Shown piece after piece: positions 12,883-61,652 of a stretch of DNA of 64,000 nt (position 1 is the first letter of the stretch; each line of letters opens with the position of its first letter). The notes under the pieces are model-generated. The model made no database searches. It worked only from the letters and a program-made list of their open reading frames with translations, and was not told the DNA's origin. The DNA is taken from positions 1-64,000 of the IMG/VR virus record IMGVR_UViG_2548876794_000003; one strand, given 5' to 3'. Made by a program: the position numbers and the translations under genes. Source of the stretch: a virus. Its lineage: Duplodnaviria; Caudoviricetes.

Positions 12883-15249
12883 TTAAATAGCTAACAAAGG
12901 TAGTGCGTTAGCCGCTTCAATTCGACAAAATTCGTCTTTTTCTTTTTTTTCGATTGCTTTCTTTAATTCTTTTTTGTACTCGTCTGAATAGGCTTCGACT
13001 AGGCCGCTTAGGTTTGGTTCTAAAGCGTCTCTGTAATGTCGTAGGTCATTCGATAAGGCATTCTTCGAAACGATTGGTGTGTCCTGTAGATACGCACCTA
13101 GCACGTTGTAAAGTTTTGTGTTCACATCTTTGCTTACTAAGCGGTTATAAGACATTTTTGCTTGGTTTAAACCAGACTGACCAATTTCTAAACAAACTTC
13201 ATATTTATCTGTCTGCTTATTCTTCATAACGACGATAATTGTTCTACCAGATAATAAATGGTGGTCGTATGTTCCAACACAGTGATGCATTTGTTTGCCG
13301 ACTAAAATTAATTCTTTCGTATCTTGTACGGCATAGAATTCATAGTCATTGATTTTACGGTTAAAGACGTTAAGCATTTCTTTAGAGTACTCAATATGTT
13401 TATTCGGCTTTCCTTCTGAAAGAGCATACATGTATAGCTTATCGTGAAGTTGATGCATATTCCGTATGCCTTCGCTCGCAATCTTATCCAACTCTTTTTT
13501 AGGCGTTCTGACGAAATTATCAAGCAGGTCGGAATAAAAAGTCGGATCTTGTTCGTCGATGACAGCTTGTAATGACTGATTCATTTGTTTTTCACTCGCA
13601 AATGACTTTTTTAAAAATCTTGCGAATTGGTTACGCATCGTTTGCAATTTAACTGGTTTGTATTCTTGCTCTGGATTGGTGTAACGTGCTGTATAATGAG
13701 GCTCTAAGTGAAGTGTGAAAGGCCCTTTTTTAGACGATCTTACGCGGATGTTATTTAAACAGTTGTACAGAACTTCACTATTTGTAATCGCACTTAAAAA
13801 GATAAATTCCTTTGAACGAATTTGATGTGATTCTAAATTGTATGGAGAAAGTTTTGGGCCATTATCTTCTAGCATTAGATTTTCCTCAATTCCTTGGTGA
13901 AAGCCTAATAAGTCTCGTTGGGAGTTTCGACGGCTTTCTGTTTTCTCAAAGTCGTCGATTGATGACGCGAATAACCCTTGTGATTTTTTAGATGAAGCAG
14001 GCAATAGTGCTTTTAATGCCTTGCTTTTAGAATCTCTGCAGGCAACTGGTACCATAGATAAAGGAATATTTGAACCTGGTAACGTCAGGCCAACCGGCGT
14101 AGCAATAATGTTGAGAATTTCTTGTGTAGAATTTCCTTGGGCGAACATTTTTGTGGCAACAGACGAATGGGTTCTCACTCGTGAATCTTTTGAGCGAATG
14201 AATGCAGAAATCATTTTAGCTGATAACATTTCGAAAGGAGTGACTTGTGAACGATTTCGCAATGGGTTGTAAAGATTTTCAAAAATAGTATCTACCGCAT
14301 CACCATATTGGTTTTCACCAATTCGTGAGAAATCTTTTATATTGATAACCGAGAAGCCGTCATCAATGCTTAAGTGTTGAGCAGCTCCCAACTGCCCGTT
14401 TGAAACGAATCGAACATGACTTTTTCGTGATGGTAGCGTAGTAACAAGGTATAGCTTCTGTGAACGTTTATTAAACGTTAGTGTGTAACGGGTAGATTGC
14501 TGTACAGGGAAGAATGAATATTCCCCCTCCTCACCTTTCCCTCTAAAGTGAGTAGACGCTGCATCGGCAGACAAGCAGTACGATCTACTTCCAATTGATG
14601 AAGAGCTTTGTCTTTTAAAGCTTGAAAGAGGATCTTTATTGACATCGACAGTGTTAAGAAAGTGCTTCTCTTGGCGTAAACGAACTTCTCGCTCATGCTC
14701 TTCGGCCGCTGAAACGACCGATGAATTAGGTAAAGGATTTTGATAAAATACGTTCGTTTTTAAAGTGAAAGCTGTGATTTTGATTTTTTCTTCATCTTCA
14801 TTCGTATATAAGGAATGTAGTGTATTCCCTATGAAACGGAATTCGTCATTACCACAGTATGGACAAACATGGTCTTTGTGAAGCTGTAGACTGGCGCGAG
14901 ATGACATTTTTTGATTCAAATAATACGCTAGTTTTTCAATCGTAATAGGGAAATGTTGAAGGTTATGTACTGAACAGTTGCATGCATAAGACATAACGAC
15001 TGGACAATCTTTGTTTTCAGCGTCCTCCTCTTCTCCCTCAGTCTCGATACTTTGAATAGGAAAAACATTAATGATGGCTTGCTGTGGAGCGTAAGCCCTA
15101 GATGAAACAGAAATTTCATTATAAATTTCTTTTAATGATTCTTCACTGCCATCGTACTTAGATTGATAGTCAAGCATGCTACTTGCAGTGTAATGTGTTG
15201 AATAGTCATTTCTGTCCTTTGAATATGTGTGTAGTAATCCTGTAATCAT
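12883..15249 (-). CDS. PcfJ-domain protein with N-terminal Zn-ribbon
   Basis: C-terminal EL..VGKQMHHCVGTY...CLEI...LNQAK..YN (PcfJ-like); CNC...CPYC near the N-terminus. Confidence 0.7.
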   Translation of the reverse strand: MITGLLHTYSKDRNDYSTHYTASSMLDYQSKYDGSEESLKEIYNEISVSSRAYAPQQAIINVFPIQSIETEGEEEDAENKDCPVVMSYACNCSVHNLQHFPITIEKLAYYLNQKMSSRASLQLHKDHVCPYCGNDEFRFIGNTLHSLYTNEDEEKIKITAFTLKTNVFYQNPLPNSSVVSAAEEHEREVRLRQEKHFLNTVDVNKDPLSSFKRQSSSSIGSRSYCLSADAASTHFRGKGEEGEYSFFPVQQSTRYTLTFNKRSQKLYLVTTLPSRKSHVRFVSNGQLGAAQHLSIDDGFSVINIKDFSRIGENQYGDAVDTIFENLYNPLRNRSQVTPFEMLSAKMISAFIRSKDSRVRTHSSVATKMFAQGNSTQEILNIIATPVGLTLPGSNIPLSMVPVACRDSKSKALKALLPASSKKSQGLFASSIDDFEKTESRRNSQRDLLGFHQGIEENLMLEDNGPKLSPYNLESHQIRSKEFIFLSAITNSEVLYNCLNNIRVRSSKKGPFTLHLEPHYTARYTNPEQEYKPVKLQTMRNQFARFLKKSFASEKQMNQSLQAVIDEQDPTFYSDLLDNFVRTPKKELDKIASEGIRNMHQLHDKLYMYALSEGKPNKHIEYSKEMLNVFNRKINDYEFYAVQDTKELILVGKQMHHCVGTYDHHLLSGRTIIVVMKNKQTDKYEVCLEIGQSGLNQAKMSYNRLVSKDVNTKLYNVLGAYLQDTPIVSKNALSNDLRHYRDALEPNLSGLVEAYSDEYKKELKKAIEKKEKDEFCRIEAANALPLLAI

Positions 15250-19867: not shown

Positions 19868-19988
19868 TCCTATCACCTCCTCTAATTTAATTCGCTAAAG
19901 TAGGCGTTCATTGGCGAGATGCAACCCAAACTCGTGTTTTGCACCCCTAAAAAACAAGAAAACTGCCGAAGCAGCCTTCTTGTCAGAT

Positions 19989-20093
19989 AAAAAAGGCGAT
20001 CTCCCATAAAGGAAATCGCCTTAAAACTAGGTTGACTAGACCATAGCTCGGTATAGTAAAAGACATTTTGTATCTATTACAATACACAACTCT
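19989..20093 (-). ncRNA. Stand-alone small RNA (about 105 nt), putative trans-antisense regulator
   Basis: Promoter TTGACT(20128-20123)-18-TATACT(20104-20099); terminator AAGGCGAT...ATCGCCTT-TTTT; no SD; two segments complementary to leaders at 56171-56197 and 58497-58509. Confidence 0.6.
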
Positions 20094-20136
20094 ATTTGAG
20101 TATAATGGCTGAACAATAGAAAAGTCAATCCTTCAG

Positions 20137-26707: not shown

Positions 26708-29700
26708 ATGAATAAAAAATTCACAAAATTTATTTCGATGATGACAGTTTTTGCAATGTTATTTACTATTTTGCCTGAATTCGCTGTTCAAGCGTTCGCA
26801 GAAGAAAAGAAAACTCTTGCAAGCTCATCTGTTTCTTCAGAAGAAAACCCTGATGAAGAACTAGATATATCTAAGTTAAAAGAAGTAAAAAAAGAACGTA
26901 CATCAAATACGAAAACGTTCACTGATTCAAATGGGAGTTTCTATAAAGAAATTTATCCCGAAGCAATTCATACAAAAGAAGATACAGGGTACGAAGAGAT
27001 TTCAGAAAATCTGACGTCAACAGGTACAGGGTATGTGTCTACTGAAAACACAAACTTAGAGGCAAGCTTTCCTCAGTCGATTAAAAAGGATTCCGAAATT
27101 ATCTATAAAAAAGATAACCACGAACTTACCTTCCAATTAGAATCTGCTAAAAAAGATCAAGAATTAATTACCCCAACTCTCAACACAACAAATGACACAC
27201 AAGCAAACAAAAGTACATTCCAAAATATTTACCCTCAAATTGATTTACGTCACATTACATTTAATGATGAAGTAAAAGAAGACTGGATTGTGAATGAGTA
27301 CACAGGTATTCATACCTTCAATTACACAATGAAAACCGATTTAACGCCGACCTTAGAGTCAAATGGCTCTATTACATTCAAAGAGGCAGATAAAGTGATA
27401 TTCACTCTTCCACGCCCAACGATGATGGACTCAAACATTAATGAAGAAAAAGGCGAAGGTATTTACTCTAATAAAGTTCATTATGAGTTAGAAGAAACAG
27501 CCACAAATACGTATGCACTAACGTTAGAAGCCGATGACGAGTGGTTATCTTCAGATAAACGTGTATATCCTGTATACATTGATCCTTCTGTTACTGCCAC
27601 TGCATTAGGAGATACGTATGTATCTAGTAAGTACCCAACAGCGAATTTCAATAAGAAGTGGGATGCTACGCAAGGCGAATATGTGCTACAAACGGGCTAT
27701 TATGACTCTACATCGGGAACAAACTATGCGTACATCAAATTCGATATTAATGATTTAAAGGGTGCTACAATTGATAATGCACAATTAAGTACGTATGTTA
27801 CCCATGCCTACTATAAAGCCGAACAAAATGGTTTGTGGGTGGACGCTGTTAATGATATTTGGTATACAGCAAGTCTAAATTGGAATAATAAGCCTTCTTC
27901 AACAAAAATCACAAGTGTAAATGTTGGTCGTGATGAATGGGCTAATTTTAATGTGACTGATACCGTTCAATCATGGATGTCAGGTGAAACACGTAATAAT
28001 GGATTTAAACTGCATACCAATGGTCATGGTAAAACTTACTGGAAAAAAATTAGTGCAGCTGAAAATACGAATAAACCAAAAATAGTTGTGAAGTATCATT
28101 ATGAAGCTGGTCCAAAACCAACGGTTTCTGCGACAGCATACAACGATGGTTCAAACAACGGCTACACAAATGTTAAATGGAACGCAGTTTATGGCGCCAC
28201 AGGATATAAACTCTTAATGTACGATGGTGCAGCTTACAAAGAAGTTTATACAGGAACAGCTACAAGCTGGTCATCAAAAGGAAAGAAAATTTTCCCTAAA
28301 TCTCCCTACACAACTTCTTCAACATATGTAACGGATGGTTCAGGAGTCGAATTACCAAATGACCCTTCAACATTCTTTGCAAAAAAAGGAACAGCAGATT
28401 ACTTGTACTATAAGTTCCGCGTTGTCCCAACTTTTGCGACAGGTGACGGAACGCAATCTGAATTTTCACGCGTGAAAATTCCAAAAGAAACAAAAGTAGT
28501 GACCGATGCGCCAGATCAACCAACAATTGTTGGACACCAGTACAGCGAAACATCAAGTAACAAAGGTCGCGGATGGTTAGACATCAGTTGGAACAAGGTG
28601 GATGGCGCTACAAGTTATAAAGTGCTTATTTGGAACGGAACAAAATACGATACTTTTAATGTAGGAAATAAAACATCTGTTACAACTAAAGGAAAGAAAA
28701 TTTATCCGACAGACGATGAAATTGCTGCTGGAACACTCGATTTCCATCAAGCAAGTTTAGCAGATACAAGTAACATTGGTACGGGTGCGGAATTACCAAT
28801 GTATCCAGGCAAATCTTATAACAATACATCGAAACGCTACAGCGTGCGAATTGTGGCCGTTTCAGATGCAGGCGATTCAGCTCGCTCAGAAATTGCTTAT
28901 GGATTTATTCCATTGTATGCACCAAAAAGTGCAGATGTAACGTTAAAAGCAAATGAAGACGATTTAGTAGAAAACAAAACAACGTTAACTGCTTCATGGA
29001 AAAATAATGAACTGGCTACGTTATACGATGTAACCATCAAAGGGGAAAAATCGAAATTTAATAAGACTTATCGCGTGAAGGCGGCAAGTGGTGATACAAC
29101 AACTTATACACCATCTGCAACATTTGACTTGGATGATACGTATGAAGTCTATATACAACCATATTTCTACGATAGTCAAAATGCACCGTCTACTGAGGCA
29201 GATGATAGCTCACTCGATGATGTGAAACGTGGAATTAGTCCAATGCCAACAGAAGCACAAGCGACTGTAACGCCTGATTTAAAAGAAGATTTAATTGGGC
29301 TAGAAGATTACTTCACATATGAAGAACAATCTTTTGGGAATGCGACAGCCAATGTCAATGTGACAACAGGAAATATGGCTGTACAATTTACAGATGAATC
29401 ATTATATACACGTGGAGAATTAGGATACGACTTCACACGCACATACAATTCTCGTTCAACAAAAGATTCAGCATTAGGTAAGGGTTGGACTTTCGTAGGG
29501 AATGAATCATTAAGTGAAGATGAAAATGGCAATGTTCTTTATAACGATGAAGATGGAACACTCCATACTTTTAGTAAAGATGGGGCAAATTATGTGTCTC
29601 CAAAAGGGCTGTATGAAACCTTAAATAAGGTAAATGATACGACCTATACAATGACCGATAAAGATGGATTTGTTCAGACTTATAAAAAAGGAAAAAATTC

Positions 29701-32700
29701 AACCGACTTTTTAATTGAATCGTATCAAGATGAATATACAAATAAAATCGTCTTTACGCGAAATGACCAAGATCAAGTAATCGCAATTGAAGAAGATAAA
29801 GGAACATCTGAACAAGAAAAGATTGAGATTTCTTATAACGCTGAAAAGCAAATTGAGAAAGTGAAATATGGGGAACATTTTACAACCTTCACCTATACGA
29901 ACAATCAATTAACAAAAACAGTGATTGGTAGCGAGAAAACCGAACGTACTATTACAGAAGCGTTTGAGTATGATGCTACAGGAAAATTAGTGAAGTACAT
30001 TGATGGGAAAAACAACGAAACGACGGTTAAGTATTCAAAGAATACATTAGTAATTTTTGATAAACAGGCAGAAGATGCTGAGTTATCAGTTACCAACACA
30101 TTTGAATTCGACACAAAAGAAAATCAATTTGTTGTAAAAGATTCTAGTGACGAAGAAACAATTTATAAACGCGACGAAGCAAATGATACATTTGCTGTTG
30201 CAGAAGTCAACGCTCCTGGAGAAGACAGTCAAAACACACGAACGTTCTACACATTCGACGACCAATACAATGTATTAGAAGTCATTAATCCGGATGGTAC
30301 TACTGAAACAAATACATTTGATTCGTCTGGCAATCTATTAACGTCTACAACAAAAGATGGCACAGCTACCAATACGTATAACGATAAAAACCAACTAATT
30401 AAAAATATTGCTGAAACTGGTGAAGAAACAACATATGTATACGATGGTGCAACCTTAGCAAGCACAACGACAAAAGATGGTACAACGAAGTTTGAAAACG
30501 ATACTTTTGGACGAACAACAAAAACAACTTATGTGAATGATACATTTGAAGAGGTCATTTATGATGATACAAATCGTCAGGTGACATCAACAGATAAAAA
30601 AGGGAATACTACGTCTGTTCAATATTCTATTTATAATCAAACACTTCAAGAGACAGACGCATCTGGTCACAAGAAATCGTACACGTACGACCCACTTTAT
30701 TTAGATACAATGACTTCTGTTACAGATGGCAATGGTAACAAAACAAGCTATACTTATGATGATAATAATAATTTAACTACGTTAACAGACGCATTAAATC
30801 GTCAAAAATCATATGTATATAATGATAATGATCAAGTGACTTCTGTAAAAATGCCAACAATGGAATTTAAGTATTCCTACGATTTAAATGGTGAATTAAG
30901 CTCCGCTATTTTACCATCAGGTATTGAAACCAATTATACTTACAATAGCGATGGACAAGTAAGTCAAATAGATAATGGTAATGATATAGTTACGTATGAA
31001 TACGATGAGAACGGTAATACACGTACTATTTCACGAAACAATGAAGCCTTAAAAACATTTACGTATGAGGCTGAAACAAATGCACTTGCAACCTATACAT
31101 TAGGCCTGTTTAGTCAAAAATATGAATATGATGAGACAGAGCGTCTTATCAAAAATCAAACGGTTTATAATGATGAAACTGCTTTCAATCAAGAAATCAC
31201 TTATAAAGAAAATAGTGATGATGTAAATCAACTAAAGTATAGTTTGGACGGTACAAACGCTCATACGTATACAGTTGATACAGACATTGCAAATAATCAA
31301 ACAACGTTAACATTAAATGCTGATTTACTTGTACAAGTTGCACAAACAAACGATAGCAATTTATTAAGTTCATTAGTTTATACAACGAAGCAACAAACAC
31401 CTTTTGAAATCAATTATGAGTACACGAAAAATGGGAATATTTCAAAAGAAACAATAAACAATGATGTAAATTCATTTGAATATGATCAAAACGATCAATT
31501 AATCAAAGAAACTTTGTCAGATGGTACAATCAATTCTTATGAATATGATGCTGTAGGAAATCGAACACAATCAGATACGAATGGAATCGTTTCTACATTT
31601 ACGTATAACGATGCAAATCAAATTAAAACGAAAAATGATGAAGCATTTGAATATGATAAAGATGGGAATTTACTACAAGATGAAAACTATAAGTACACGT
31701 ACAACCAGCAACAACGTCTTACTCAAGTAGAAACACTTGATGGTAACCTAATTGCATCTTACACATATGATGAAAATGGTCTGCGTTTAACAAAAACAGT
31801 CGGTGATACAACGCATGAATATTTCTATAATAATGAAGTATTAGATATGGAAGTTGTGAAAGTAAATGATGTTGTAACGGAATATCGTTCATATGAATGG
31901 GATGGTTATACACCACTTGGTATGGTAGTGAAATCCAAAAATAATGCGGATATGTTTGAAACGAAAGCGTATCAATTCATCATAAACCATCGTGGCGACG
32001 TCTTAAGCATTCGTGATAGTGAAGATAATGAAGTTGGCTCATACACATATGACGCATACGGAAATATTCTTGATGCTGAAGGGGCTTTAGCAAAAGAAAA
32101 TCCAATTCGTTATGCAGGTTACTATTATGATGATGAAACGAAGAATTATTATTTACAAGCACGCTACTACAACCCGGCAAATGGCTCGTTCTTGGCATTA
32201 GATCCGTATCCGGGGGATGCCGATGATCCATTATCACAAAATGGCTATAACTATGCGAATGGGAATCCAGTGATGTATGTGGATCCAGATGGAAATAATC
32301 CAATTTATGGCCTACTTGCAGCTATTGCTAGGTATGCTGCACCTTTATTAAGGAGCGCAGGTGCAAAAGCAGCCAAGAAAATTAATAAGTATGCGAAGAA
32401 ATTATTGAGCCCCTTCAAAAGATATCGAATTACTTCTAGTAAGAATGCTATAATTGTTGTAGTAGATAGAAAATCTAAATTAGGTGATAAACGAATTTTC
32501 AGTATAGATAAACATCCTAATATACCTTTCTACAAGAAAACAGACAAGAAAAAAAGACTGTTAGAGATATTAAGGTGTGGCATTATCATCTGGGGCCCAT
32601 GTCAGGATACGGAAAAGGGGGGAATGTCCATAGAGTATTTAAATGGGATATCCCTTCTAAGTACAAATTAAAAGTTGGCATTAATTATGTTTATGCTTAA
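26708..32700 (+). CDS. wapA: WapA-like secreted RHS/YD-repeat polymorphic toxin with DNRLRE-type domain; toxin tip probably frameshifted (in-frame stop 32671, -1 frame stop 32700)
   Basis: Sec signal peptide; YPVYIDPS; DTYVSS; YD repeats; RHS core NPIRYAGYYYD.ET..YYLQARYYNP..G.FL..DP...NGY.YANGNPVMYVDPDG. Confidence 0.9.
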
Positions 32701-35045: not shown

Positions 35046-35424
35046 GCAGGTTCTCCTTGTATGGATTGTAGACAGTATATAGTCCTTCGCTGTCCCAATC
35101 ATTAAAATGTTCAATTGTCTCAAAGATATTATTCCTTCTATGCATCTTAGTATTAAAATGACGTTCATTGAAGAAAAGCAATTCATCCACAATATGAGGT
35201 CGTACTACAACAATTCCAAACTTGTTGAATAGAACTCTACCCTTTACGAGAACGTGAGAGTTAACCCACTTTCGATGCGTAAAATAAACATCGTCCCCTT
35301 TAACTAACTTTTTGTCCATAAGGAAATAGCCTGTCAAAATAGATTCCTCTGTATCGAGTGCATCTATTTCAACAGACTTAGCGTTAGTTGGTATTGAACT
35401 ATCCATGTCATGTGTTGTAATCAT
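35029..35424 (-). CDS. Hypothetical protein
   Basis: SD AAGGAG. Confidence 0.65.
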   Translation of the reverse strand: MITTHDMDSSIPTNAKSVEIDALDTEESILTGYFLMDKKLVKGDDVYFTHRKWVNSHVLVKGRVLFNKFGIVVVRPHIVDELLFFNERHFNTKMHRRNNIFETIEHFNDWDSEGLYTVYNPYKENLHDNIN

Positions 35425-35458
35425 TTTTAAAATGCTCCTTTAGTCGGGTAAAGAGTAG

Positions 35459-37507: not shown

Positions 37508-38485
37508 TTATTCTACCCCTGCTTTCTCTTCCGCTTCGATACGGTTTAATAATTCATTTGCAATACCAGCGTATAGCGTATGGATTGCTTTATCATGAGT
37601 GTCTGTTTCATGATGTGAAATACCAACACGAGAGTAACGTTTTAATCGTTCGCGGTAAGGAACAACAGAGTTAAATAAATTGTGTTCTCCAAATGTTTCA
37701 GCAGCATCTTGTAGGATGCGTTCATCAACTTTACTGTCTCGTTTTAGAATTACAGGCAAGATACCAATAATATCTGCTTCGGCATCATATTCGTCAATAA
37801 GCTCTTGTAAGTAGCCAACGAAGTCTTTCGCACCATCTAATGACCAGTCTTGTGTTTGGAGAACAACAAGAAGATAGTTCGATGCATAAAGCGCTGAATC
37901 GGTAATGATAGAAAGTGTTGGTGGAACATCAATGAATACAAAATCATATGCTCCGCTTACTCTATCTAATAAATCTTTTAAGTGAGTAACGCGATCAGTG
38001 TAATCTGGGAAAACACCTTCTAAATATCGAGAATAGTAACGGAAATCACTATAGCTTGGAATAATATCTAAGTTGTCAATAATTGGTGTGATGATACTTT
38101 GTAGATCTTGGTTTTGAATGGCCGTCATTAACGTGCCATCGTATGTAATGCTATCTACAGGTTCTTCAACCGATTCCTTAACTTGATTAATTTCTTTAAG
38201 AGATAGTTTTACACGAGATGCGTCGAAGTCATCTTCGCCTTCATGTTTAGCACGTTCAGCAGCAATCTTCGCATCTAAAACTTGGTCAAGTTTATCTTGA
38301 ATCATAAGCTCATGTTCATGTAAGTGACGAGTTTTCATAAGAAGTGAAGTTGCATTTGCTTGCGGATCCTGGTCAACAATTAAAACTCGTTTGCCCATTT
38401 TCGCTAATTCGTAAGCAATCATAACGGTGTTGGTAGTCTTGCCAACGCCACCTTTGATGTTACCGAATGTGATAGTAGTAGTCAT
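37508..38485 (-). CDS. parA: ParA Walker-type partition ATPase
   Basis: GNIKGGVGKTT, VLIVDQDPQANAT, YDFVFIDVPP; no N-terminal HTH (type Ib-like). Confidence 0.95.
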   Translation of the reverse strand: MTTTITFGNIKGGVGKTTNTVMIAYELAKMGKRVLIVDQDPQANATSLLMKTRHLHEHELMIQDKLDQVLDAKIAAERAKHEGEDDFDASRVKLSLKEINQVKESVEEPVDSITYDGTLMTAIQNQDLQSIITPIIDNLDIIPSYSDFRYYSRYLEGVFPDYTDRVTHLKDLLDRVSGAYDFVFIDVPPTLSIITDSALYASNYLLVVLQTQDWSLDGAKDFVGYLQELIDEYDAEADIIGILPVILKRDSKVDERILQDAAETFGEHNLFNSVVPYRERLKRYSRVGISHHETDTHDKAIHTLYAGIANELLNRIEAEEKAGVE

Positions 38486-56215: not shown

Positions 56216-56629
56216 TTATCGTGCAATAAGTGAACGAGCTGCAATACGGCTCGCATGGTCTGCACCTTCATTGTTTTCGCGTGCAATGTACATGATGTCT
56301 TTTAGATTGCGTACGTTTAAGTCACGAATCTTACACCACAGGTCCTCGCAGAATGCGACACCTTTTATTCCTTTAAAAGTGTTAATCACCTCCTTACAGT
56401 CCGATTGAATTACTGCAGCGCAGCCTTCCTTCTTAATAAACTTGCATGCTTCATAGATGGCATATAGTTCGCAATGTCTTGAAGATACTGGGTTTTTCAC
56501 CTTACCTGTACGGCGAATGACTCCTTGCTCTGTATGGACTTCGATTGCCCATCCACCAGCCATCTCTCCTAAGTATTCTAAGTAGCTGCCGTCTGTTTTA
56601 ATGACGGTACGTTCTTTGGTGCTAGTCAT
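56216..56629 (-). CDS. Ribonuclease HI-like protein
   Basis: IKTDGS, GGWA, ELYAI.EA, IQSDC, RENNEGADHAS: all D-E-D-D catalytic residues present. Confidence 0.88.
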   Translation of the reverse strand: MTSTKERTVIKTDGSYLEYLGEMAGGWAIEVHTEQGVIRRTGKVKNPVSSRHCELYAIYEACKFIKKEGCAAVIQSDCKEVINTFKGIKGVAFCEDLWCKIRDLNVRNLKDIMYIARENNEGADHASRIAARSLIAR

Positions 56630-56868: not shown

Positions 56869-56986
56869 AGTGGTAAATCTCCTCCGACTACTGGGCTCTC
56901 GTCCCTTAAAAGTCGTACAATGGTGAGCGCTTGGCTCATAATAAAAAAGCGCATACCGCCGTTAGGGGTACACGCTGTATAAATAA

Positions 56987-57607
56987 TTAAACTTTTCTTA
57001 AAGAATCAATAAGGTTTGTAATATCGTTAACTGTTAATGCCTTATCTCCTCCAACTACTTCGTTCATATAATTGAACGCACGATGCGTAACGAATGTTTT
57101 TGCTGCTCCATCCACTTCTACTGTTACAACACTGTTCAGATAGCTCATACGATCCATCTCACGAATAAGCGCGATTGCCACCGGTCTCACATCATCTTGA
57201 TTTGAACCAGCAGAGATTCTACATCTCCAGTTAAGTCCTTCTCTATGGAACGATGCTTTCGCTTCATAAGAAACGTCTGGTTCATGCGTAGCATACTTTT
57301 CTTCTAACACATTGAACTGCTCAACAAGTTGGCTGCCTAATGCGACAATTTGGTCGAATAGCTCTGGGATTTCACTAAGATCTAGTTCGACACCATACTC
57401 TGCGTGGTCCACTTGAATTTGACCTGCTTGGCCATCGTTATCGTCCATTGTGATTGTTGCTCCGTTTAGTTCTGTATTTACTTGTAGTGCTGTACCTTGT
57501 TTCTCAACGATCGTGCGAATGCTATTGATTGTGCCTACTGGTTGGAATACGTCGTTTGCTCCAGCGAATAATACTTTGATACCTGCGATTGATGTAGTTG
57601 TTTTCAT
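56987..57607 (-). CDS. Hypothetical protein
   Basis: Start reassigned to MKTTT after SD GGAGG. Confidence 0.7.
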   Translation of the reverse strand: MKTTTSIAGIKVLFAGANDVFQPVGTINSIRTIVEKQGTALQVNTELNGATITMDDNDGQAGQIQVDHAEYGVELDLSEIPELFDQIVALGSQLVEQFNVLEEKYATHEPDVSYEAKASFHREGLNWRCRISAGSNQDDVRPVAIALIREMDRMSYLNSVVTVEVDGAAKTFVTHRAFNYMNEVVGGDKALTVNDITNLIDSLRKV

Positions 57608-57737
57608 GTTAAAAGCCTCCAAAATAGTTTTATAGTTTTTTGTTTTAAAAGATAATGCAATAAAGAATTGTTCTGATAGGGTGAAGCCGACTAGCTTTAA
57701 TTGAAAGCTACTGATTTGAATATTACCGATTTGAACA

Positions 57738-58106
57738 TTATGCAAATTCATAGCGTTTCCCTTCCTCTGAGTTATTTATTCTTTCACGTACTGCAAGGTC
57801 ACGCGCATGGAAATCTTTAATGGCTAATGTAAGCATGTCGTCGAACGTGCATCCTAACATTCTACGAAGCATTACTAAATCTACGACAATCTCCTTATCC
57901 TCGCCTACTAACTGTAACGAACCATTTTGTAGTCCTGGCGTATTGATTGCTTTAATAACTTGTGCGCATGTAGCATCGACATCTGATTCGGTTACTGAAA
58001 GATTGAATTCGTTTTCTGGTTTGTTTTCGCAGTCAATTGTGAAGAAGTCATCTAGGAAACCGCCGTACGTTGTATCTGGGATTTGATGGTATGTTACTGT
58101 AATCAT
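57738..58106 (-). CDS. Hypothetical protein
   Basis: Start MITVT after SD GGAGG. Confidence 0.7.
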   Translation of the reverse strand: MITVTYHQIPDTTYGGFLDDFFTIDCENKPENEFNLSVTESDVDATCAQVIKAINTPGLQNGSLQLVGEDKEIVVDLVMLRRMLGCTFDDMLTLAIKDFHARDLAVRERINNSEEGKRYEFA

Positions 58107-58211
58107 TATTAATTCCTCCAAAGAATAAAGGACGCACACTGTACGCCCTCATAGTTTATTTATATTTAATAGGTAGAAACTTTGTTTTAGGGGGGTGGCC
58201 GTTTTCTCGAC

Positions 58212-58481
58212 CTACCCAAAGAAGGCTTGCATATCTTCAACTGCCTTCATTAACTTACGTGAAGATCGCGCGCGATTTATTACTTCAATACCTGTTGTTA
58301 AATCAATGAAGCGTACATCTTGTTTCGCAAACTTCATCACTTTCTTGATTAGGTCCTTTACTTCGTCTGCGCCTAAGCACACTTGCATTTCTGAATTTGG
58401 TACGCATACGTGATATACGTCTAGCTTTGTACCATGGTTTGAATAGGGGTTAGATGCTTTATAGCCTTTTACTGTAATCAT
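58212..58481 (-). CDS. Hypothetical protein; candidate target of the 20-kb sRNA
   Basis: SD AGGAGGT. Confidence 0.7.
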   Translation of the reverse strand: MITVKGYKASNPYSNHGTKLDVYHVCVPNSEMQVCLGADEVKDLIKKVMKFAKQDVRFIDLTTGIEVINRARSSRKLMKAVEDMQAFFG

Positions 58482-58734
58482 TTGATTACCTCCTGTGAGT
58501 TGTGTATTGGTTTGTTGTAGTCAGCAACATGGCCAGTCAGTCACGACCAGCCTAATTAACCGTCCGAAAACGTGTGAGTGCTCCTACCCGCGAAGCGGAG
58601 ATTGTTCCGCAAGCAAAGCACTCGGCAATGTTAGTTCATATAGTGGACTAAGCTATATGCTGTTGATTTGGTTTGTCATCATCAGATGCAGGGGAACCAC
58701 CTACTGCATGACTGAGTTGCCCCAGTTTCGACCA

Positions 58735-58878
58735 TTATTTAAATAGCCCGATGATACGGCGGATTGCACGTTTGGCCATCTTGAAGCGGAACACGTTCCA
58801 CATGATGACGAATGGCATTGCCACAACTCCTAGCATGATTAATTGTTTTTCTTCGCTGTTCATTGGTTGGTTGTTCAT
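58735..58878 (-). CDS. 47-aa membrane peptide
   Basis: MNNQPMNSEEKQLIMLGVVAMPFVIMWNVFRFKMAKRAIRRIIGLFK; SD GGAGGT; below ORF-track cutoff. Confidence 0.65.
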   Translation of the reverse strand: MNNQPMNSEEKQLIMLGVVAMPFVIMWNVFRFKMAKRAIRRIIGLFK

Positions 58879-58924
58879 TATATATACCTCCAGTCGTCGA
58901 GGGCTCTAGTCCCTAAAAACGACA

Positions 58925-59255
58925 TTCATTTCAATTAGTGCGTTCATCATGGTATGTCGGAGACACACATACGAAAGCACGACAAAGAACCCTAACTTCC
59001 TCGAAGTAGGGCACCGCAGCGTAACACTCCCGCAAGAGTTGTTATTTAAAGTGTGCATTGCACACATCAGCCACATATGAAGTATGGGGAGCTTCGTGCT
59101 TGGAGCCATCGTGGTTTTCGATGGCGACGCGAAGCGGTAACACACCTCTAATGCTTGGGACAAATGTGCTGTGTCCATTAAAGTAACAATCATGTGTGCA
59201 TACGAATGCGATTGTAACCTTAATGCACATAGGGGAGATCCCCTACGCACAATAC
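58925..59255 (-). ncRNA. Candidate structured RNA/leader downstream of the RNA polymerase genes
   Basis: Nearly continuous hairpins, e.g. CATTAAGGTTACAATC/GATTGTTACTTTAATG, GCCATCG/CGATGGC, GTGTGC/GCACAC, GTATGT/ACATAC. Confidence 0.5.
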
Positions 59256-59261
59256 TACTTA

Positions 59262-61541
59262 TTAGAATCCGAATAAATCGTCGTCATCTTCATCTTCATC
59301 ATCTAACTCAGCTAGTAACGCTGCTTTACGATCTTCTAAAGTTTCTGCTGCTTCTACAGTTTCTTCTTCGTTATCAGTTGCATCGTCACCAAATAAATCA
59401 TCATTACTGTCATCAGAAACTTCATCTTCGTCATCTGTAGCGAATAGTTCTTCATCGTCTGCAGAGATTTCGTCAGCTTCTTTTGTTTCTTTCTTGCTAG
59501 ATTTGAAGCGGTCTTTAATCATTGCTTTGTTTTCATCTGATTCAGCGATGATGTCGATGATGTTTTCTTCTGCATCACCTACAACTTGAATCACGATACC
59601 AACGTTTGCGTAACCTTTGTTTTTAGAGAATACTGCTTGTACTAAACGAACTTTCTTCATTGAAGCTGGTTCAGTTGTACCATTGAATACGCCATTACGT
59701 TGTTCATCGTTTGATACATTTGAGCTGTATGTGCTAACAGGTAACACTAATGCTGCTTTATTTTCGTCAGCACTTACATCCCAGATAGCAGGGATTGTTT
59801 GGCGATTCTTGTTATCCATGTTTGTTGTATAAAGCTCTTTGCCAGCTTTGAATGTAGCTAATAATTTAGCAACGTTTTCTGTAGCGTATTTAGTGATGTT
59901 GCCTTCTTCATCTTGTGTGTACATTGAATCTTCTTTGAAGTAAGAGCTATCACCTTGTAAGAATAAGATACCTTCTGGTGCTGTTTCGATAGAGCGTTCA
60001 ATGATTTCTTGTGCTTTATCTTGAATGTTACGTTTTGCTACGATACGGAATTTCTGTTCGCCATCTTCATCTAATTCAATTGATTCTTGAATTTCGAATA
60101 CATATTCACCTTCTGGTAAGAAGTTTACGAAGTATGGGTTGAAGCCTTTTTCGTTGAATGTCACAACGTCACCATTTTGGTATGGTAGTTCCTCAACGTT
60201 TGGCGCGATGAATAGTTCATCTTCTGTTACGAATGAAGCTTTGTAGCCTTCAAGGTCAGTTGATTCGTTGTGGATCATTTCAGCGTATAGTAATTGTTCC
60301 TCTGCGAATAGGGCACTGAAAGCAGATGACATTGTGTTTGATTTGTTATCTTCACCATAACGAAGGTCGCCAATTTGACGAGTGATTAATGCTAATTTCG
60401 CTGCATCTACACCAAGTTGAGTTGCTTTTAAACGTACGGCAGCTTTCATGAATTCAGTTAATGGTTTGTATTTTTTAGATACACGAGCACGTACTTCCAT
60501 TGCTTCGTCAGTATCAGAATCAACTAATTGTAATTCATATTTTGTTTCATCGCGTTGAGCACGTTCAATTGCATCGAATTGAGTTAATGTTGATTGTACA
60601 TATGAAGTGAACTCTGGGTTCTCACTTACTACTGCTGCAGCTTCGATAACCTCTGATTTAATGAATGTTGCTTCACGAGCTGTTTCATCAAGGTCGATTA
60701 ATGCATTGTAGATTTCAGTAAGGCTGTATTTCTTGAACTGTTGTTTCAAGTCAGTGAAGATAGCTTTACCTTTTTTATCGTAGTCTAGTTCATCTCGGTA
60801 GAATAATGATACGCGGCTACCAGCTGTTTCTGCATTATCACTTGCGATAGTTAAGAACTGCTCAGTCATTTTTTCTTTGTATTCCGCTTTCATTTCATCA
60901 GTGAATAGCAGTTGTACTTTTACTGAACCTTTGTTAATAGATGCTACTTTATATGCTTTTGATGGGCTTGCGATTACTGATACTTCGTAAGCTTTTTTGA
61001 ATGCGTCAATGTGACGTTGCATATCAATATCGAATACTAAGTCAACATCTGCTAATAATTCGATGATTGTTTTGTCTGTTGCTGATTTGAAGTCGAAGTG
61101 TTCTAACGTTTTCAAGATAGCTTCACGATCTGCGACGTTAAGTTCTGCTTGCTCTACGATTACACCAGAAGCATTAACGAATGATGTTTTCGTACGTTTG
61201 ATAGCTTTGTATTTAGTGATTGTTGGTACAGTGTTATCTTTGTTGAAGATTTCGCCAAGAACACGACGAGTTTCTTCTGTTGCTACAGTGTATGCTTCTT
61301 CTGTGATGCCACGTAATGCTGCGCCGAATTTTAATGTTTCTGCTGCTGCTTTAAGTGCTTGTGACGCGTTTGCTACGATACCGATACCAGCAACTTTAGC
61401 TGATGTTTGTTTAACCATTGTTAATGCTAAGTTCTCTGCAGCGTAACCGAATTTTGATGCACGTTGAGCTTGAACTTCTTTGATGTTTTTAACGAATGAT
61501 GTAGCTGCGAATTGGTTGAATTTGTTGTTTGTGAATGTCAT
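59262..61541 (-). CDS. Probable C-terminal subunit of a split RdRP/YonO-family RNA polymerase
   Basis: GIGIVANA (RdRP LG.I.N-like) and QRHIDAFKK (AVD..K-like) motifs; adjacent to the catalytic gene; SD AGGAGG; acidic tail. Confidence 0.55.
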   Translation of the reverse strand: MTFTNNKFNQFAATSFVKNIKEVQAQRASKFGYAAENLALTMVKQTSAKVAGIGIVANASQALKAAAETLKFGAALRGITEEAYTVATEETRRVLGEIFNKDNTVPTITKYKAIKRTKTSFVNASGVIVEQAELNVADREAILKTLEHFDFKSATDKTIIELLADVDLVFDIDMQRHIDAFKKAYEVSVIASPSKAYKVASINKGSVKVQLLFTDEMKAEYKEKMTEQFLTIASDNAETAGSRVSLFYRDELDYDKKGKAIFTDLKQQFKKYSLTEIYNALIDLDETAREATFIKSEVIEAAAVVSENPEFTSYVQSTLTQFDAIERAQRDETKYELQLVDSDTDEAMEVRARVSKKYKPLTEFMKAAVRLKATQLGVDAAKLALITRQIGDLRYGEDNKSNTMSSAFSALFAEEQLLYAEMIHNESTDLEGYKASFVTEDELFIAPNVEELPYQNGDVVTFNEKGFNPYFVNFLPEGEYVFEIQESIELDEDGEQKFRIVAKRNIQDKAQEIIERSIETAPEGILFLQGDSSYFKEDSMYTQDEEGNITKYATENVAKLLATFKAGKELYTTNMDNKNRQTIPAIWDVSADENKAALVLPVSTYSSNVSNDEQRNGVFNGTTEPASMKKVRLVQAVFSKNKGYANVGIVIQVVGDAEENIIDIIAESDENKAMIKDRFKSSKKETKEADEISADDEELFATDDEDEVSDDSNDDLFGDDATDNEEETVEAAETLEDRKAALLAELDDEDEDDDDLFGF

Positions 61542-61622: not shown

Positions 61623-61652
61623 AAAAAGCCACACAACTGACAGTCATGCGGC
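61623..61652 (-). terminator. Intrinsic terminator between the two polymerase genes
   Basis: GCCGCATGAC-TGTCA-GTTGTGTGGC-TTTTT. Confidence 0.6.

Follow-up and report, generated by a model that had tools for sequence, protein, structure and literature searches.

A predicted hammerhead ribozyme and a strand-specific folded RNA structure next to two putative polymerase genes of a Caudoviricetes phage

What is the role of two hairpin-dense intergenic blocks that lie directly downstream of a pair of putative polymerase genes in a phage? The question is raised by the virus record IMGVR_UViG_2548876794_000003 (Duplodnaviria; Caudoviricetes), a single contig of 178,960 bp, the first 64 kb of which (positions 1 to 64,000) constitute the stretch analyzed here, referred to as the window. 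Near-identical copies of this phage occur in manure, compost, soil and gut metagenomes; two of the sequencing runs are labelled metatranscriptomic and probably represent DNA. All the genes surrounding both blocks are carried by the minus strand. These are, in the direction of transcription, a gene for an 835-amino-acid (aa) putative polymerase (start at 64208, just past the window end, with 744 aa within the window), a gene for a 759-aa putative polymerase (59262-61541), block A (58879-59261, 383 nucleotides, nt), a 47-aa gene (58735-58878), block B (58482-58734, 253 nt) and an 89-aa gene (58212-58481). A first-pass annotation had described the blocks as GC-richer than other intergenic DNA, as they are (0.46-0.49 versus 0.23-0.46 in the remaining gaps), and had suggested that they encode noncoding RNAs (ncRNAs) or antitermination leaders, or an RNA partner or template of the polymerase. 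The present analysis indicates that block B opens with a predicted type II hammerhead ribozyme and that block A is a real, strongly folded and strand-specific RNA structure of no known family.

The predicted ribozyme (58661-58736, minus strand) was located by a core descriptor (GAAA, hairpin, UH, hairpin, CUGANGA) and by a covariance model. Right after the TAA stop codon the minus strand reads GGUC, GAAA, a CUGGG/CUCAG hairpin with a GCAA loop and UC, followed past the predicted cut by an AUGCAG/CUGCAU hairpin with a 12-nt loop, CUGAUGA, U, GAC, A and AACCA. The catalytic core is complete, with C3U4G5A6N7G8A9 represented by CUGAUGA (58685-58679), G12A13A14 at 58729-58727, the A15.1-U16.1 pair at A58726-U58711 and C58710 as H17. 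Stem III (58726-58721/58716-58711; 6 bp) and stem I (58709-58704/58691-58686; 6 (+2) bp) are closed by loops and stem II, which pairs GUC (58732-58730) with GAC (58677-58675) over 3 bp, is open, the topology of the type II permutation. Cleavage at the GUC site, between C17 (58710) and 58709, would fall 25 nt downstream of the stop codon of the 47-aa gene. An extra U (58678) follows A9, before G10.1, and a predicted pseudoknot (58669-58699) of 5 bp, which begins 1 nt past stem II, joins UGGUU of loop I (58699-58695) with AACCA of the tail (58673-58669). Both hairpins had been listed in the first-pass annotation, as AUGCAG/CUGCAU (58709-58686, here stem I) and ACUGGG-GCAA-CUCAGU (58726-58711, here stem III); it missed that together with CUGAUGA and GAAA they compose a type II hammerhead. 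In this class, stems II of 1-2 bp are common, and the fold is stabilized by a pseudoknot in which loop I pairs with the tail immediately past stem II (Perreault et al. 2011, PMC3088659). An extra nucleotide at the same position is natural in a viroid hammerhead, where a U increases activity 3-4-fold according to a passage in PMC3705267, which cites De la Pena and Flores (2001).

The core descriptor matches once across both strands of the 179-kb genome; 150 simulated genomes yielded 5 hits in total. The core string GUCGAAAC...GUC...CUGAUGAUGAC is found, identical letter for letter, in at least 118 loci of IMG/VR, many of them with 2-6 copies, by means of a pattern (GTCGAAAC, 8-20 nt, GTC, 14-40 nt, CTGATGATGAC) for which about 4 chance matches are estimated and which does not require stems I and III or the pseudoknot. 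Of 136 unique copies among the matches listed, 131 have a stem III of at least 5 bp and 123 such a stem I, and a pseudoknot of at least 4 bp between loop I and the tail is present in 97, its modal tail offset of 1 being the same as here. The extra U after A9 is shared by all the pattern-selected members, and it is absent from at least one other member. In the alignment A2, which comprises 90 of the IMG/VR copies, 86.7% of the cells are paired versus 62.6% in shuffles, double-sided changes number 382 versus 108, and none of 500 shuffles reaches the covariation observed in the columns of stems I, III and the pseudoknot. The covariance model built from A2 gives one hit in the whole genome, at 58661-58736 on the minus strand (55.2 bits, E 4e-11). 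Relatives are recognized by the Rfam model Hammerhead_II (RF02276), which gives 31.6-43.7 bits in one locus (L011) and, for most of another 15 loci, 26.8-52.1 bits. Judged from its sequence, the predicted hammerhead adds one more member to a phage family that is very common; it is very probably a genuine ribozyme, for which cleavage is predicted.

The setting of the element also resembles that of the type II hammerheads known from phages and bacteria (RF02276), which share the complete core, the loop I-tail pseudoknot and the location after a stop codon among small phage genes. A stop codon lies at most 9 nt upstream in 124 of the 136 copies among the matches listed, whose flanking genes are small (median 80-88 aa), and both features hold here. 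The difference resides in what follows, namely about 190 nt of further hairpins before the next gene. As a separate observation, type II hammerheads with a CUGAUGA-U-GAC core form arrays in several IMG/VR loci, with up to 6 copies in 2.2 kb (L066:9913-12141, L050:4314-5070, L037, L032, L011); each of the arrayed hammerheads precedes a small gene (about 40-110 aa), whose start is 13-27 nt downstream, and some of the products are single-helix membrane peptides.

The rest of block B (58482-58660, minus) is the leader of the 89-aa gene, which has its own ATG and a strong Shine-Dalgarno sequence (SD; GGAGG, 58493-58489). It contains four or five hairpins, at 58659-58637 (CAUAUAG/CUAUAUG), 58623-58576 (GAGUGCU/AGCACUC), 58552-58531 and 58529-58513. 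Compared with dinucleotide shuffles the folding of the entire block is unexceptional (z-score -1.58 on both strands), and the part past the hammerhead, its 3' two-thirds, reaches -2.9 on the minus and -1.0 on the plus strand. The hammerhead itself folds no better than shuffles (z +0.2), so that the rule of the first-pass annotation, by which folding energies within the range of shuffles would refute a functional RNA, would wrongly discard the ribozyme.

For block A the minimum free energy (MFE) is -136 kcal/mol, as compared to -106 +/- 5.8 in dinucleotide shuffles, with a z-score of -5.09 on the minus and -2.99 on the plus strand. Across 32 random windows of 383 nt from the genome the mean is -0.64 (standard deviation 1.35) and the minimum -3.84; this most extreme window falls in the region of the terL group I intron, and block A exceeds it. 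Its energy density, -0.355 kcal/mol per nt, is the lowest among the intergenic gaps tested. G-U pairs account for 18 of the 133 predicted pairs, in agreement with the minus-strand bias noted in the first pass, all of whose named stems are found where it placed them, in the minus-strand MFE structure and with high pair probability.

The excess is contributed by three modules with z-scores between about -4 and -5, a level that each attains only on the minus strand. Module 1 (59170-59261) comprises two hairpins immediately after the stop codon of the 759-aa gene, one with its 12-bp stem centered on 59245-59230 and one at 59225-59176 with 19 bp in three tiers (9+6+4); it has z -4.0 on the minus and -2.6 on the plus strand, and its pair probabilities are 0.94-0.99. 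Module 2 (59079-59148) is a three-tier hairpin of 8+6+7 bp with asymmetric internal loops and the terminal loop AAAACCA. In the segment 59076-59152 it scores -4.9 on the minus and -2.05 on the plus strand, the MFE structure makes up 78% of the ensemble, and the helix GCUUCG/CGAAGC enclosing GCCAUCG/CGAUGGC (59135-59091) has P of at least 0.99. The middle of the block (59010-59075), with two small hairpins (59065-59051 and 59044-59022), is no better than shuffles (-0.7 minus, -2.0 plus). Module 3 (58885-59008) is a multi-branch domain closed by an outer helix in which UACUUC is paired with the SD region of the 47-aa gene; the segment 58876-59012 has z -4.0 on the minus and -1.8 on the plus strand, with pair probabilities of at least 0.96.

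Module 3 also holds a leader motif, AGGGACUAGAGCCC, at 58914-58901. It has a second copy at 56893-56906 (minus), and the two conform to AGGGAC(U/G)AGAGCCC; in each a U run comes first and a 5-bp stem, with compensatory changes between the copies, encloses the motif. These are the only two copies in the genome, and both are situated just upstream of SDs, those of the 47-aa gene and of a 79-aa gene. Of 16 IMG/VR matches to the same 14-mer, about 7 (L127-L129, L131, L132, L139) have it immediately ahead of an SD and ATG, and in four of these loci it directly follows a TATAAT-like box. Sequestration of the SD as a special feature of the 47-aa gene was considered and rejected, since this gene ranks 29 of 142 in the genome for SD pairing.

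The 47-aa gene looks real. It is preceded by an SD (GGAGG, 58891-58887), its codon log-likelihood ratio (LLR) is 0.37, versus 0.30 +/- 0.13 in real genes, and its three population single-nucleotide polymorphisms (SNPs) are all synonymous third positions. Homologue searches retrieved near-identical copies only. The product combines a single hydrophobic helix with a polar N-terminus and a basic tail, as expected for the small membrane peptide that the first-pass annotation had placed between the blocks. With respect to a type I toxin-antitoxin system, the peptide fits the general shape; its SD pairing has the unexceptional rank mentioned above, the peptide has no homologues, and no plus-strand promoter or terminator was detected in the blocks.

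Population variation was obtained from Logan contigs, with a divergence of at most 1.6%. Block A contains 6 SNPs in 383 nt, of which three lie in confident helices, two in loops (59196 and 59203, module 1) and one breaks a low-confidence long-range pair. The three helix changes (A-U to G-U at 59184 in module 1, G-U to A-U at 59143 in module 2 and C-G to U-G at 59041 in the middle) all keep minus-strand pairing by way of G-U pairs, and two of them would break the pairing on the plus strand. The synonymous rate is about 3.2% (7 in 218 sites). SNP density in block A is about half of it, and block B has 1 SNP in 253 nt versus about 8 expected at that rate. These densities hint at constraint, stronger in block B, the synonymous rate being drawn from 7 events.

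A second ribozyme is predicted at the other end of the polymerase genes. A type-P1 twister (RF03160) was identified on the minus strand at 64496-64556 of the genome (L001:8496-8556), 496 nt past the window end, with a score of 55.5 bits (E 2e-10) that stays under the gathering cut-off of 67.2. The stop codon of a 77-aa open reading frame (ORF) precedes it by 30 nt, and the 835-aa gene begins about 290 nt downstream. As it is on the same strand and upstream of the putative polymerase gene, a predicted ribozyme is placed on either side of the polymerase unit. Hammerheads and twisters co-occur, and the type-P1 twister is often near hammerheads. The pairing seen here matches that of one IMG/VR locus (L028), where a twister and a hammerhead of the same type are found together. 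The spacer that separates the twister from the polymerase gene (64209-64495, L001:8209-8495, minus) consists of eight or nine near-perfect hairpins (11, 14, 8, 10 and 7+4 bp, among others) with a z-score of about -8 on both strands; two adjacent stems carry the loops UGGAC and UUGGAC, and a run of nine A with a hairpin would read as a plus-strand terminator.

The reading considered probable, with somewhat better than even confidence, is that the minus-strand operon transcript folds into RNA structure in both blocks, with the hammerhead cutting after the 47-aa gene and block A serving as a cis element in the upstream product. The hammerhead would cut the transcript 25 nt past the 47-aa stop codon, leaving an upstream RNA with the polymerase genes, block A and the 47-aa gene, which would end in the stem III hairpin and a 2',3'-cyclic phosphate. 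The downstream RNA, from the 89-aa gene onward, would begin with a 5'-OH and a hairpin-rich leader of about 230 nt. If the twister and the hammerhead act on one transcript, they would excise an RNA of about 5.8 kb containing both polymerase genes, block A and the 47-aa gene. Block A would remain within this product, and we infer that it acts in cis within the putative polymerase/47-aa mRNA. Its tiered hairpins of about 20 bp after the polymerase stop codon might represent a barrier to 3'-exonucleases or a double-strand-specific processing site, protecting the part that codes for the polymerase, and the 47-aa gene would have the 3' domain of the block as its leader. Ribozyme processing of polycistronic mRNAs has been suggested in reviews and is unproven (PMC6765202).

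A parallel for this working is offered by phage T7. Dunn and Studier reportedly described in 1983 that the RNase III hairpins R1 and R1.1 of the T7 early mRNA flank the RNA polymerase gene. The likeness would be in the release of a polymerase message from a polycistronic transcript and in stable hairpins of about 20 bp with asymmetric internal loops after the polymerase gene, in a position to shield the 3' side of that gene. The two systems differ in that the cuts predicted here would be made by ribozymes and not by RNase III, and they have no sequence relation; cleavage of block A by RNase III would be a purely conjectural extension of the analogy.

Several observations weigh against this reading. 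On the side of the ribozyme, the Rfam model RF02276 gave no hit to 58661-58736 at E<=10, whether in 57500-60000, in a 171-nt slice (58620-58790) or when run alone on the genome. The 22 fixed bases match the A2 model by construction, because the search string was copied from the candidate; independent support for the predicted hammerhead comes from stem pairing, stem lengths and pseudoknot position. The GGUC strand can be sequestered by a competing hairpin, and an SD and start codon within 30 nt downstream, present in 88 of the 136 copies among the matches listed, are missing here, with the next start about 190 nt away. On the side of block A, the lack of a homologue means that no covariation test is possible, strong z-scores are not rare in the intergenic gaps of this genome, and the pair-preserving SNPs amount to only 3 changes, a weak signal (chance p about 0.15). 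Pairing of the 47-aa SD by the last 124 nt of the block is unexceptional and, as predicted SD pairing is common in the genome, is not counted as evidence. Finally, a promoter-like, hairpin-rich stretch intervenes between the twister and the polymerase gene, so that a single common transcript can only be presumed.

Among the alternatives, the one that survives best, although it is considered unlikely, is that block A is a free-standing, trans-acting ncRNA of a new class, released by processing and functioning as a partner, decoy or regulator of the YonO-like polymerase. Its exceptional, strand-specific structure, its GC content well over that of the neighboring DNA, its position adjoining the polymerase genes in a unit bounded by two predicted ribozymes and the lack of a match to a known family would all suit such a molecule. 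In contrast, block A has no promoter or terminator of its own that could be found, a second cleavage site 5' of it was not detected, its last 124 nt are joined to the 47-aa SD, and neither conservation nor covariation can be invoked as there is no homologue. No match was found in the blocks with Rfam, at E<=10 on 57500-60000 (the check that the first-pass annotation had recommended) and at E<=0.05 genome-wide, or with a scan for tRNAs and tmRNAs. Searches with blastn and tblastn against cultured phages detected no relatives of the locus. Word-based searches with the 759-aa, 744-aa and 47-aa proteins returned near-identical copies only, and an exhaustive HMMER scan with the 835-aa putative polymerase returned three distant relatives only. 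Searches for related loci with single proteins and with an alignment (A1) in viral, metagenome and genome collections were empty. For block A itself, nhmmer and tblastn gave no match against 1.06 Mb of hammerhead-bearing phage loci, a loop-motif pattern taken from the three-tier hairpin had 0 matches in IMG/VR, and no internal repeats or paralogues of either block occur within the genome. The ncRNA proposal of the first-pass annotation thus holds as far as functional RNA structures on the transcribed strand are concerned, and the specific roles it attributed to them lack support; in particular, nothing ties the blocks to the polymerase as its RNA partner or template. A more far-reaching version, in which block A would be a new structured RNA class tied to the YonO-type polymerase, either as a trans partner or within a polymerase RNA excised by the two ribozymes, with the twister at its 5' and the hammerhead at its 3' end and hence with 5'-OH and cyclic-phosphate ends open to circularization by an RtcB-type ligase, is regarded as distinctly unlikely.

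Some candidate elements were examined in this connection and rejected. Block A contains a stretch, GUCCCAAGC, that shares 9 nt with the twister loop; the closing helices of a second twister are missing and there is no model hit. A kissing contact of the AAAACCA loop with loop I of the hammerhead would rest on a 5-mer alone. With respect to a group I intron, RF00028 gave no hit at E<=10 in 57500-60000, whereas the terL intron was found at 34 bits; the R/S-like matches GACUA and UAGUCC do not exceed chance expectation, and the 89-aa gene carries an SD and an ATG of its own.

The possibility that the hammerhead-like motif is inactive or a chance look-alike, block B then being a mere hairpin-rich leader, is judged improbable. 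It would account for the silence of the Rfam model, for the stem II of 3 bp only with its inserted U, for the hairpin that may occupy the GGUC strand and for the missing SD and start right after the ribozyme. However, the descriptor has just one match in the genome and few in the simulations, and a large covarying phage family known to Rfam has the identical architecture, insertion, stem II and pseudoknot position. A short stem II is nothing unusual (PMC3088659). Nor is the miss by RF02276 unique, as the model also misses, at E<=1, relatives with well-formed stems (L036, L076, L070:964-1016 and two of the three L032 copies). The Rfam model therefore under-detects the phage subfamily, as judged from its failure on well-formed, pattern-defined copies. 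The stems here are AU-richer than those of the RF02276 hammerheads and score below the Rfam reporting level; the gathering cut-off of that model (37 bits) is likewise not reached.

That block A is a present or recent protein-coding gene is quite improbable. A 114-aa ORF with a GTG start (58906-59250) covers nearly all of the block on the operon strand, three of the five SNPs within it are synonymous, and its GC content is nearer to coding than to intergenic DNA. On the other hand, no SD precedes the GTG, and the codon LLR of -0.31 is below that of every gene of at least 150 aa (mean 0.30, standard deviation 0.13, minimum -0.20). Cys, His and Met are abundant in the predicted product, which has no match in Pfam or PHROG, and one variant contig of low depth has a frameshifting 1-nt insertion at 59231. 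By start signal, codon use and family match the ORF fails as a protein-coding gene, which moreover would leave the minus-strand z-score of -5 unexplained.

Action of the hairpins as DNA, whether as hairpin-type phage RNA polymerase promoters, an origin or a recombination site, is very improbable for block A. The idea draws on the spacer upstream of the polymerase gene, a near-perfect palindrome array with equal z-scores on both strands. In block A, by contrast, the stems need their 18 G-U pairs of 133, which would be mismatches in DNA and on the other strand, the z-scores differ between minus (-5.1) and plus (-3.0), and the SNPs preserve RNA pairing on the minus strand only.

The antitermination or read-through leaders that the first-pass annotation had likened to HK022 put and Bacillus EAR are hardly credible here: beyond the presence of structured RNA in a long transcription unit, and of two terminator-like hairpins in the operon, one in the 159-nt gap separating the two putative polymerase genes (61628-61652, minus; 11 bp and a U run) and another after the 89-aa gene, the likeness ends, with no Rfam antitermination family at E<=10, four terminator-like sites found versus 4.2 expected in place of the many it had mentioned, none inside or just downstream of the blocks, and block A located after and not before the hairpin at 61652-61628.

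The neighborhood of the operon and the remainder of the window present some further features. The active RNase H that the first pass had placed nearby probably refers to a 137-aa ORF (56216-56629, minus), whose match to Pfam RVT_3 (RNase H-like fold) is only sub-threshold (E 0.0045; 17.3 bits versus a cut-off of 21.6). The starts of the 89-aa gene and of the next gene (58458-58482 and 58083-58107) are direct repeats and both proteins begin with MITV; the true start of the next gene is probably the ATG at 58106, giving a product of 122 aa, and the SD/start regions of the 122-aa and 47-aa genes resemble each other (58103-58120 and 58875-58892). Two other intergenic gaps are strongly structured, without an Rfam match: 19877-20136 (z -6.5 minus, -4.6 plus) and 35193-35458 (z -4.9 minus, -0.2 plus). 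The window also encodes a 1987-aa protein with RHS repeats and DUF6531 (26708-32671), which belongs to its few plus-strand genes, a PcfJ-like protein (12883-15249) and a ParA-type ATPase (37508-38485).

The predicted hammerhead illustrates that a routine Rfam scan overlooks real ribozymes in AT-richer phages, which a core-pattern search of viral contigs recovers. Block A is among the most strongly folded stretches of the genome and, once relatives or a host become available, a candidate for structure probing. With a predicted hammerhead and a predicted twister flanking it, the phage RNA polymerase operon provides a concrete, testable case for ribozymes that may cut polycistronic phage messages into pieces with different fates.

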